64,000 nt of DNA from the NCBI RefSeq assembly GCF_000027125.1, contig NC_017626.1. One strand, written 5' to 3'. The position numbers and the translations under genes were made by a program. Numbering within the stretch: the first letter of the stretch is position 1; each line of letters starts with the position of its first letter. The notes below the pieces were generated by a model. It saw nothing but the letters and a program-made list of their open reading frames with translations. It searched no databases and was not told the DNA's origin. Source of the DNA: Escherichia coli 042 (lineage in GTDB: Bacteria; Pseudomonadota; Gammaproteobacteria; Enterobacterales; Enterobacteriaceae). Of the stretch, positions 29,345 through 30,535 are shown in pieces.

Positions 29345-30535
29345 TTAATGAATTTCTTTTGCCACTACTAGCGCGACACCGCTTTTACCCTTCATTTGCA
29401 GCGCATAGACTCCACCAGCCACTACCACTAATAGTGCACCCAGCAGATAAATCATTCGGTAGCCAGTATGTGCAACCATCATCCCCATCACACAGGCTCC
29501 CAGCGCCAGGCCTGCATCCATCGCATTGAAGAATAGGGAGTTTGCGACACCGATTTTATGCGGTTCCACTGAACTGATAATCTGCGTCTGAAAAACTGGC
29601 GTCACGGAACCATACCCGATACCAATCAACGCGCCAGAAACAACCATCATTATGCTTCCCTAGGTGTAGCCGAGAACCACCAGTCCAACCGTAAAGAACA
29701 CAAGGCAAGGGTAAACCACATATTTCGGTCCTTTTTTGTCGCAGACATTGCCGGTAAAGGTACGGCAGATCATCAGGAAGATAGCGTAGCAAAGCAGGAA
29801 ATTACTGGCTGCCGACATCAGGTTAAGTTCGCGTGCATAAAGCGCCAGAAAAGCAGAAACCCCGGCATACGAAAAGGTCATAAAAAAGGTGACCATCGCA
29901 AATGGCAACGCCGCGCGATCGAACATGGCGGCGAAGCCCATTTTCGGCTTTGAACCATCAGCATGGCTGATAACCGGCGGCACTGTCATAATCAGCGACA
30001 GAATAATCCCCACCGCTGCCACGCCGGTGCATAACCAGAAAGCCATATTAAAGGCCTCCCAGCGCGCCATATTCAGGCCAATCCACGGCCCGACCACCAT
30101 TGCCAGCCCCATTGCCAGAGAGAAAAAACTGATGCCCTCCCCACGTCGGGAGGCCGGGATCAGCCGCGCGGAAATCGTTCCTTTTACCGTAGTAATAACC
30201 CCGAAGGTAATACCATGAAGCACCCGAATAAAAAGCAGTGATTCAATTGAGTGGCAAAAAGGATACAACGCAGTGACCAACAAAAAGGCCAGAGAAGAGA
30301 GCACCAGAATAGTTTTATTCGAATATTTACCCACCCATTGCCCGGCAAAGGGGCGAATAACAATGGCGGCAATTAAAAATAAAGTCACCAATAAACCGGC
30401 TTTATCAGGAGAGGCATGCAAGCGGTCAGAGATATAAATTGGCAACAATGTTAGTAAAACATAAAAGACGAAGAAAATAATAAAGCTGATGATGGTTATT
30501 GCCCAAAAATCCTTCGTCCATAACTTCTCTTTCAT
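29345..30535 (-). pseudogene. MFS transporter interrupted by a single in-frame TAG stop (at 29660-29662)
   Basis: 291-aa and 101-aa ORFs are in the same frame, separated only by TAG plus 3 codons; together about 396 aa with a 12-TM-like profile. Confidence 0.65.

Follow-up and report, generated by a model that had tools for sequence, protein, structure and literature searches.

An amber codon at a Dcm site interrupts an MFS transporter gene in Escherichia coli 042 and recurs in O55:H7

When a gene is broken by a single stop codon, the break may be an error in the data, a step in neutral decay, an advantageous loss, or an interruption that the cell can tolerate. The window analysed here, 64,000 nucleotides of contig NC_017626.1 from E. 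coli 042 (assembly GCF_000027125.1), raises this question for a transporter of the major facilitator superfamily (MFS). An earlier note had described two minus-strand open reading frames (ORFs) of 291 and 101 codons, lying in one frame and separated only by TAG and three sense codons. We read the sequence again and found this description accurate. The upstream ORF runs from 30535 to 29663 on the minus strand and is closed by TAG at 29662-29660. The codons GGA AGC ATA (29659-29651, minus strand) follow the stop, and the second ORF begins directly after them. The features of the gene are as follows.

29345..30535, minus strand: MFS transporter pseudogene of 396 codons (ORF translation, Pfam, hydropathy and intact orthologs)
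29660..29662, minus strand: in-frame amber TAG, codon 292 (sequence and ortholog alignment)
29345..29650, minus strand: downstream 101-codon ORF carrying transmembrane segments TM10-12, in the same frame and opening with ATG ATG 9 nt past the stop

If the TAG is ignored in translation, the two ORFs give a product of 396 aa. The reconstructed protein matches Pfam PF07690 (MFS_1) with E=1.8e-59 and a score of 201.8 bits (cut-off 33.4), and it is collinear with uninterrupted 396-aa genes annotated "MFS transporter" in other E. coli. The gene had been called an otherwise intact MFS transporter, and these matches uphold that assignment. In a profile search, no NCBIfam equivalog reached its cut-off with this protein. 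The gene is real and really interrupted, and chance juxtaposition of ORFs is excluded. By hydropathy only, the protein has 12 hydrophobic segments in two six-helix halves, with a central loop at approximately residues 187-205, and the same profile places codon 292 in a loop of 2-3 residues between TM9 and TM10. Whereas an MFS carrier has an uninterrupted frame for all of its helices, the TAG removes TM10-12 from the main product. Because the stop falls in the TM9-TM10 loop, that product is expected not to transport, and we infer that the truncated protein has lost this activity.

The alleles of strains 118UI and CB209 differ from the window gene at 1 position in 1191 nt, with no indel. This sole difference is at nt 874 of the coding sequence (window position 29662), where CAG (Gln) has become TAG. 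The earlier note expected a sense codon here in orthologs, and the comparison returned one: codon 292 is CAG in every intact E. coli allele examined, and the corresponding position is Asn in the Salmonella and Citrobacter orthologs. Since all intact E. coli orthologs examined carry CAG, TAG is the derived state. The MFS gene is a recent pseudogene made by a nonsense mutation.

The view that the mutation is very recent is also borne out. Apart from the TAG, the gene is identical to the nearest alleles, and the nearest complete genome, CB209, differs from window positions 22874-54513 (31.6 kb) by 6 SNPs and one 483-bp deletion. A properly centred 55-mer did not detect the window-type TAG in the complete E. 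coli genomes searched, and an off-centre 55-mer placed over the amber site returned 777 matches in complete genomes, none of them identical. By these comparisons, the amber allele is judged to be recent.

A stop codon at a methylation motif deserves some suspicion, and the earlier note had asked for a second look at the site. Long-read base calling is known to be prone to error at Dcm motifs. Thus, the T at 29662 might be a sequencing or assembly artefact, the strain really carrying CAG. Several noisy assemblies with many broken genes do bear changes exactly at this CCAGG: 875delA in L012, 872delC in L016, and 875A>G in L014, L015 and L017. The changes in these error-rich assemblies are presumably base-calling errors at the methylation motif. 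However, an exact-product look-up recovered the truncated 291-aa product on 52 public contigs from three sources (NCBI, Logan and ENA), and the split into 291 and 101 codons is identical in all 25 of the 25 contigs read. Over 12,876 bp, the window also matches an ENA contig at 100% identity; this contig is called k141_43851, a name of the kind that short-read metagenome assemblers give. In addition, a linked 483-bp deletion in the neighbouring LysR gene agrees with the deposited annotation of E. coli 042, and a TAG at the same codon occurs in nine separately deposited complete genomes of O55:H7 type (see below). An artefact at 29662 is therefore scarcely credible.

A different lesion in the same gene was seen in other sequences. 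In the draft genome of DEC4E (L010), a 1-bp deletion in an A6 run at nt 799 of the MFS gene yields products of 294 and 101 aa. Noisy assemblies L013-L015 and L017 share this deletion, which may be either a real frameshift or a homopolymer error.

How did the amber codon arise? The changed base lies within a recognition site of the cytosine methyltransferase Dcm.

29659..29663, minus strand: mutated Dcm site (nt 873-877 of the coding sequence), CTAGG here and CCAGG in the intact alleles examined

The surrounding context in intact alleles is ACC CAG GGA, and the base at 29662 corresponds to the inner (second) C of CCAGG, the one that can be methylated. The change is a C-to-T transition (C874T). 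A base change within a Dcm site supplies a mechanism. Dcm would methylate the inner C of CCAGG at codon 292, the resulting 5-methylcytosine at nt 874 would deaminate spontaneously to thymine, and the T:G mismatch would escape very-short-patch repair by Vsr. Replication would then fix CTAGG, converting codon 292 from CAG to TAG. Both the base change and its Dcm context are read directly. Active Dcm in the host, methylation of nt 874, and deamination combined with escape from Vsr are the presumed cause. The dcm-vsr genes lie outside the window, and 5358 of the 5426 complete genomes of E. coli have them.

The MFS gene contains two Dcm sites only, and these allow four outcomes of 5-methylcytosine deamination. 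Three of the four are synonymous, and only the one at nt 874 gives a stop. Among the six SNPs that separate the window from CB209, the amber mutation is the single one at a Dcm site, the other five lying outside such sites. Therefore, the argument for a hotspot rests on sequence context and on a single recurrence (two origins). An ordinary C-to-T change that does not involve methylation is chemically indistinguishable, after the fact, from deamination of 5-methylcytosine.

Deamination of 5-methylcytosine is a classic route to amber codons and was first observed in lacI. According to a passage in PMC12606429, Coulondre et al. (1978) described amber hotspots in lacI that are G:C to A:T changes at the second C of CCAGG and depend on methylation. 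CCWGG is still recognised as a hotspot in E. coli mutation data (PMC13250602). The window allele resembles the lacI hotspots in that a G:C to A:T change at the second C turns an in-frame CAG within CCAGG into an amber codon, and in that the change recurs at one nucleotide. However, the lacI mutants were selected in the laboratory, whereas the alleles considered here are fixed, natural ones in a chromosomal accessory gene of wild lineages. Moreover, methylation dependence was reported for the lacI hotspots, whereas the role of dcm in the present case is deduced from sequence context.

The recurrence came to light through a look-up of the 101-aa downstream ORF, which revealed genomes that have the same split of 291 and 101 codons but an intact 292-aa LysR gene. 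The MFS allele in these genomes is of the type found in CV261. It carries the identical C874T together with 48 other differences from the window allele. A 55-mer centred on the CV261-type TAG matched nine complete genomes at 100% identity, of which seven are labelled O55:H7 and the other two are 2013C-4465 and FDAARGOS_946. The CV261-type TAG allele is thus found in L008, L011 and these nine complete O55:H7-type genomes. One of the pseudogenes, G2583_RS14280 of O55:H7 strain CB9615, is the ortholog of the window gene with the same codon altered by the same C874T, and RefSeq describes it as "MFS transporter, internal stop". It differs from the window gene in belonging to an approximately 4%-divergent allele, in adjoining an intact LysR gene, and in its separate origin.

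A tenth match to the O55-type query, in CDC#03-98, was rejected. Its apparent TAG is spurious: a duplication of TACACC recreates a 28-mer, and the codon is CAG. The duplication is an in-frame tandem (Tyr-Thr repeated) directly 5' of codon 292, at approximately 3020-3031 of L019, and it leaves an intact 398-aa transporter.

The TAG alleles of the window lineage and of O55:H7 could in principle have one origin and have been spread by recombination. E. coli recombines, and this region is a patchwork, as 118UI illustrates: its identity to the window is 100% on one flank of the deletion junction described below and 99.6% on the other flank. However, the window-type and CV261-type alleles are approximately 4% divergent, and the O55:H7-type TAG allele retains the CV261-type SNPs at nt 852, 879 and 883, the nearest of which lie 22 nt upstream and 5 nt downstream of nt 874. 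A shared origin would require a recombination tract of at most 26 bp, so two independent mutations are the more parsimonious account. The LysR gene also is intact in O55:H7 and partly deleted in the window. We regard a common origin as highly improbable, and C874T most parsimoniously arose separately in the window lineage and in the O55:H7 lineage. Thus, the same nucleotide is altered in independent lineages, and two origins are documented. A single substitution can create a stop in the MFS gene in 118 ways, of which 19 are C>T or G>A. The chance that a second nonsense hit would be identical to the first is accordingly about 1/118, or about 1/19 if only C>T and G>A changes are counted. If this is a hotspot, the same mutation is to be expected in a second lineage.

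The amber codon is accompanied by damage to the divergent neighbour of the MFS gene, which encodes a LysR-family regulator.

30536..30686, no strand assigned: divergent MFS-LysR intergenic region (between the ORFs)
30687..31424, plus strand: truncated LysR-family regulator of 245 aa rather than 292 (comparators, Pfam)
31421..31422, no strand assigned: junction of a 483-bp deletion (against 118UI, CB209 and other comparators)

An imperfect AT-rich palindrome in the intergenic region (30641-30666) is a possible LysR box. The deletion takes away the 3' end of the LysR gene (47 codons) and 339 bp of downstream spacer, and its ends share microhomology of 1-3 nt at most. Sequence just past the junction supplies the TAA stop at 31422-31424. 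The protein consequently is without the last 47 residues of its effector-binding domain. In Pfam searches the HTH_1 domain is complete, but LysR_substrate is matched at profile positions 2-160 of 209 only, so the product does not have the full domain content of a LysR regulator. The 245-aa product is identical to CBG35312.1 of E. coli 042, which is annotated "LysR-family transcriptional regulator (partial)". The 483-bp deletion was found in none of the 5426 complete genomes, where all matches to the junction were in two pieces spanning 684 bp. The earlier note had seen no frameshift or deletion. This holds for the MFS gene itself, in which one base only is changed, but not for the locus, given the deletion next door.

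The deleted segment (13923-14405 of L007) also contains a 43-codon ORF with a good Shine-Dalgarno sequence (MTPGRNRYEAPDSL...), which in L008 lies at 801-932. Gene callers report this ORF in L008, L010, L011 and L013, and it was lost from the window lineage together with the LysR 3' end.

The MFS-LysR pair lies between two groups of genes, nrdA-nrdB-yfaE-inaA and a 356-aa hypothetical gene with glpQ-glpT. The full-length MFS gene is present in 1227 of 5426 complete E. coli genomes, and approximately 3140 further genomes keep only about the last 150 bp of it, a remnant of the K-12 type. In K-12, the annotation shows 105 bp from the 3' end of the MFS gene back to back with 243 bp from the 3' end of the LysR gene. 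Because the pair has been lost from most of the species, it is accessory. The K-12 remnant between inaA and glpQ (yfaH region) resembles the window in that the same pair has been lost at the same locus. It differs in the manner of loss: deletion left only the 3' ends in K-12, whereas the window retains a full-length transporter gene with one stop and a 3'-truncated regulator.

Where the MFS gene is intact, its codons indicate that it is functional and under purifying selection. Of the codon differences between the approximately 4%-divergent alleles, 45 are synonymous and 3 non-synonymous, and orthologs of 396 aa are present in Salmonella and Citrobacter. Yet another lesion is found in 24AR0357 (L002, 3036-3914), in which LysR codon 25 has independently changed from TTG to TAG. 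This T>A transversion is not at a Dcm site, and the MFS gene of the strain is intact. The K-12-type deletion, the lesion in 24AR0357 and the lesions in the window together suggest that the locus is under relaxed selection and has been lost by several routes. The transporter and its regulator form a dispensable pair, and the interrupted gene within it is an ordinary pseudogene of recent, nonsense origin. We consider it likely that this pseudogene arose by a C-to-T change at the inner C of a Dcm site, in a locus that is decaying more widely.

The third member of the inaA-glpQ islet, and other parts of the window, were also inspected.

31547..32617, plus strand: 356-aa hypothetical gene, third member of the inaA-glpQ islet (ORF open in the window)

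This hypothetical protein had no Pfam or NCBIfam matches. Its residues from approximately 199 to 209 are wholly unlike those of the CV261 allele, with both flanks identical, which is the signature of a compensated double frameshift. RefSeq labels the identical sequence in 118UI and CB209 "frameshifted" because of this double frameshift. In L004, which has an additional 1-bp indel within the 12.9-kb locus, the 356-aa gene is called at 247 aa only. No Rfam family matched within 28000-33000, and promoter and terminator scans produced nothing above shuffled expectation. Neither the locus nor a list of individual pseudogenes appears in the genome paper on E. coli 042, in its main text or its supplements.

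Two observations concern more distant genes. The nrdA-nrdB spacer (26945-27160) contains tandem REP-like repeats whose copy number varies by strain, L002 being shorter by approximately 145 bp, and this region gives the nrdB ORF a long but spurious N-terminal extension. The menC gene (minus strand, approximately 57374-58337) has seven G residues at 58201-58207, compared with six in CB209. The resulting +1 frameshift at approximately codon 43 splits the 320-aa ORF for o-succinylbenzoate synthase in two, leaving a first part of 51 codons and a second of 286. Exact-product look-ups found neither fragment as a called product. The menC lesion is either a real pseudogene of the menaquinone pathway or a homopolymer error.

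Loss of the transporter need not have been neutral. Inactivation might have been selected as a pathoadaptive loss of an exporter in diarrhoeagenic lineages, the Dcm site being simply the quickest route. The gene was lost in parallel in two pathogen lineages, the 042-like clone of enteroaggregative E. coli (EAEC) and O55:H7. Furthermore, seven differences separate the window from CB209 over 31.6 kb, and two of them, the amber codon and the 483-bp deletion, disable the MFS gene and its LysR partner. However, a mutational hotspot alone accounts for the parallelism, and two of seven events in about 7% of the sequence gives p roughly 0.08 by our own binomial estimate. Most commensal and laboratory lineages also are without the locus, and it is intact in O157:H7-like genomes. 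We therefore consider selection for inactivation unlikely.

The interrupted gene might instead still be expressed at full length if the host carried an amber suppressor, as the earlier note had proposed. A supE-type tRNA-Gln(CUA) inserts Gln at UAG. Because Gln is also what the lost codon specified, supE would give back exactly the native protein, and the remainder of the MFS gene is undamaged. The situation resembles that of amber alleles in supE44-suppressed K-12 strains, in that tRNA-Gln(CUA) would fully undo the effect of a CAG-to-TAG change. However, an undamaged remainder is equally explained by recency, and there are no tRNA genes within the window. The wider search for supE used a centred 55-mer that carries the CUA anticodon of glnV, made from the K-12 sequence, against 5426 genomes. 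It detected supE-type glnV in 158 of the 5426, and all 60 of the 60 matches listed are K-12 laboratory derivatives (C600, DH5alpha, DH1, J53, S17-1 and others). In contrast to the supE44 K-12 strains, where this suppressor resides, the relatives of the window are wild human isolates; among the matches listed, the suppressor is seen in K-12 derivatives only. The K-12 lineage that carries supE has itself deleted the MFS gene. A scan of the window for further single-stop interruptions gave no sign of several amber-interrupted genes, and truncation of the partner LysR gene also argues against maintained function. Rescue by a suppressor in the host of the window allele is hardly to be believed.

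In the same search, the tRNA position carried no annotated feature in any of the 60 matches listed for supE-type glnV(CUA). The suppressor tRNA gene seems to be left out of RefSeq annotation.

A second way to retain activity would be a split transporter. Translation would terminate at UAG and reinitiate at the AUG at 29650, and a fragment comprising TM1-9 would assemble with one comprising TM10-12 into a partly functional carrier. Consistent with this proposal, the stop falls in a short loop between helices rather than within a helix. A Shine-Dalgarno-like element, CUAGGGAAG, precedes the ATG ATG and pairs with the anti-Shine-Dalgarno sequence at -5.7 kcal/mol, compared with -7.1 kcal/mol for the native start, and the C-terminal TM10-12 fragment could be translated separately. 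Among random 20-mers from the window, 11% reach an anti-Shine-Dalgarno energy of -5 kcal/mol or lower and 5.4% reach -6 kcal/mol or lower.

Lactose permease provides a precedent for the assembly of fragments. Expression of LacY in two pieces was engineered, and worked, in a 1994 study cited in a passage of PMC6605686. Like split LacY, the window gene encodes an MFS carrier whose break falls in a loop, and its two ORFs are in principle co-expressible. However, the LacY fragments are proven to be functional, whereas those of the window are predicted from sequence. The TM9-10 loop is merely 2-3 residues long, and a free TM10 would require N-out insertion. In addition, expression would need a regulator that is probably truncated, and other lineages simply delete the gene. 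Activity of a carrier in two pieces is therefore very unlikely. The amber codon would be more than neutral decay if the Dcm CAG were a weak point for advantageous repeated loss, or if termination and reinitiation gave a functional two-piece MFS carrier, and we give little credence to this pair of proposals. The reading as a recent pseudogene in a decaying accessory locus is preferred.

For annotation, the MFS gene should be flagged as a pseudogene, along with its truncated LysR partner. Much of this was known already, in that the mutational mechanism is textbook material and annotation pipelines can recognise the pseudogene. The amber allele opens no new biological question. What is added here is the assignment to a Dcm hotspot and the parallel occurrence in nature. 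Two cautions follow. Pseudogene calls at CCWGG sites are suspect when they derive from noisy long-read assemblies, and identical nonsense alleles across lineages need not reflect shared ancestry or selection. The locus thus serves as a worked example of a laboratory hotspot, in which 5-methylcytosine in CCAGG gives rise to an amber codon, acting in natural E. coli to make the same pseudogene twice.
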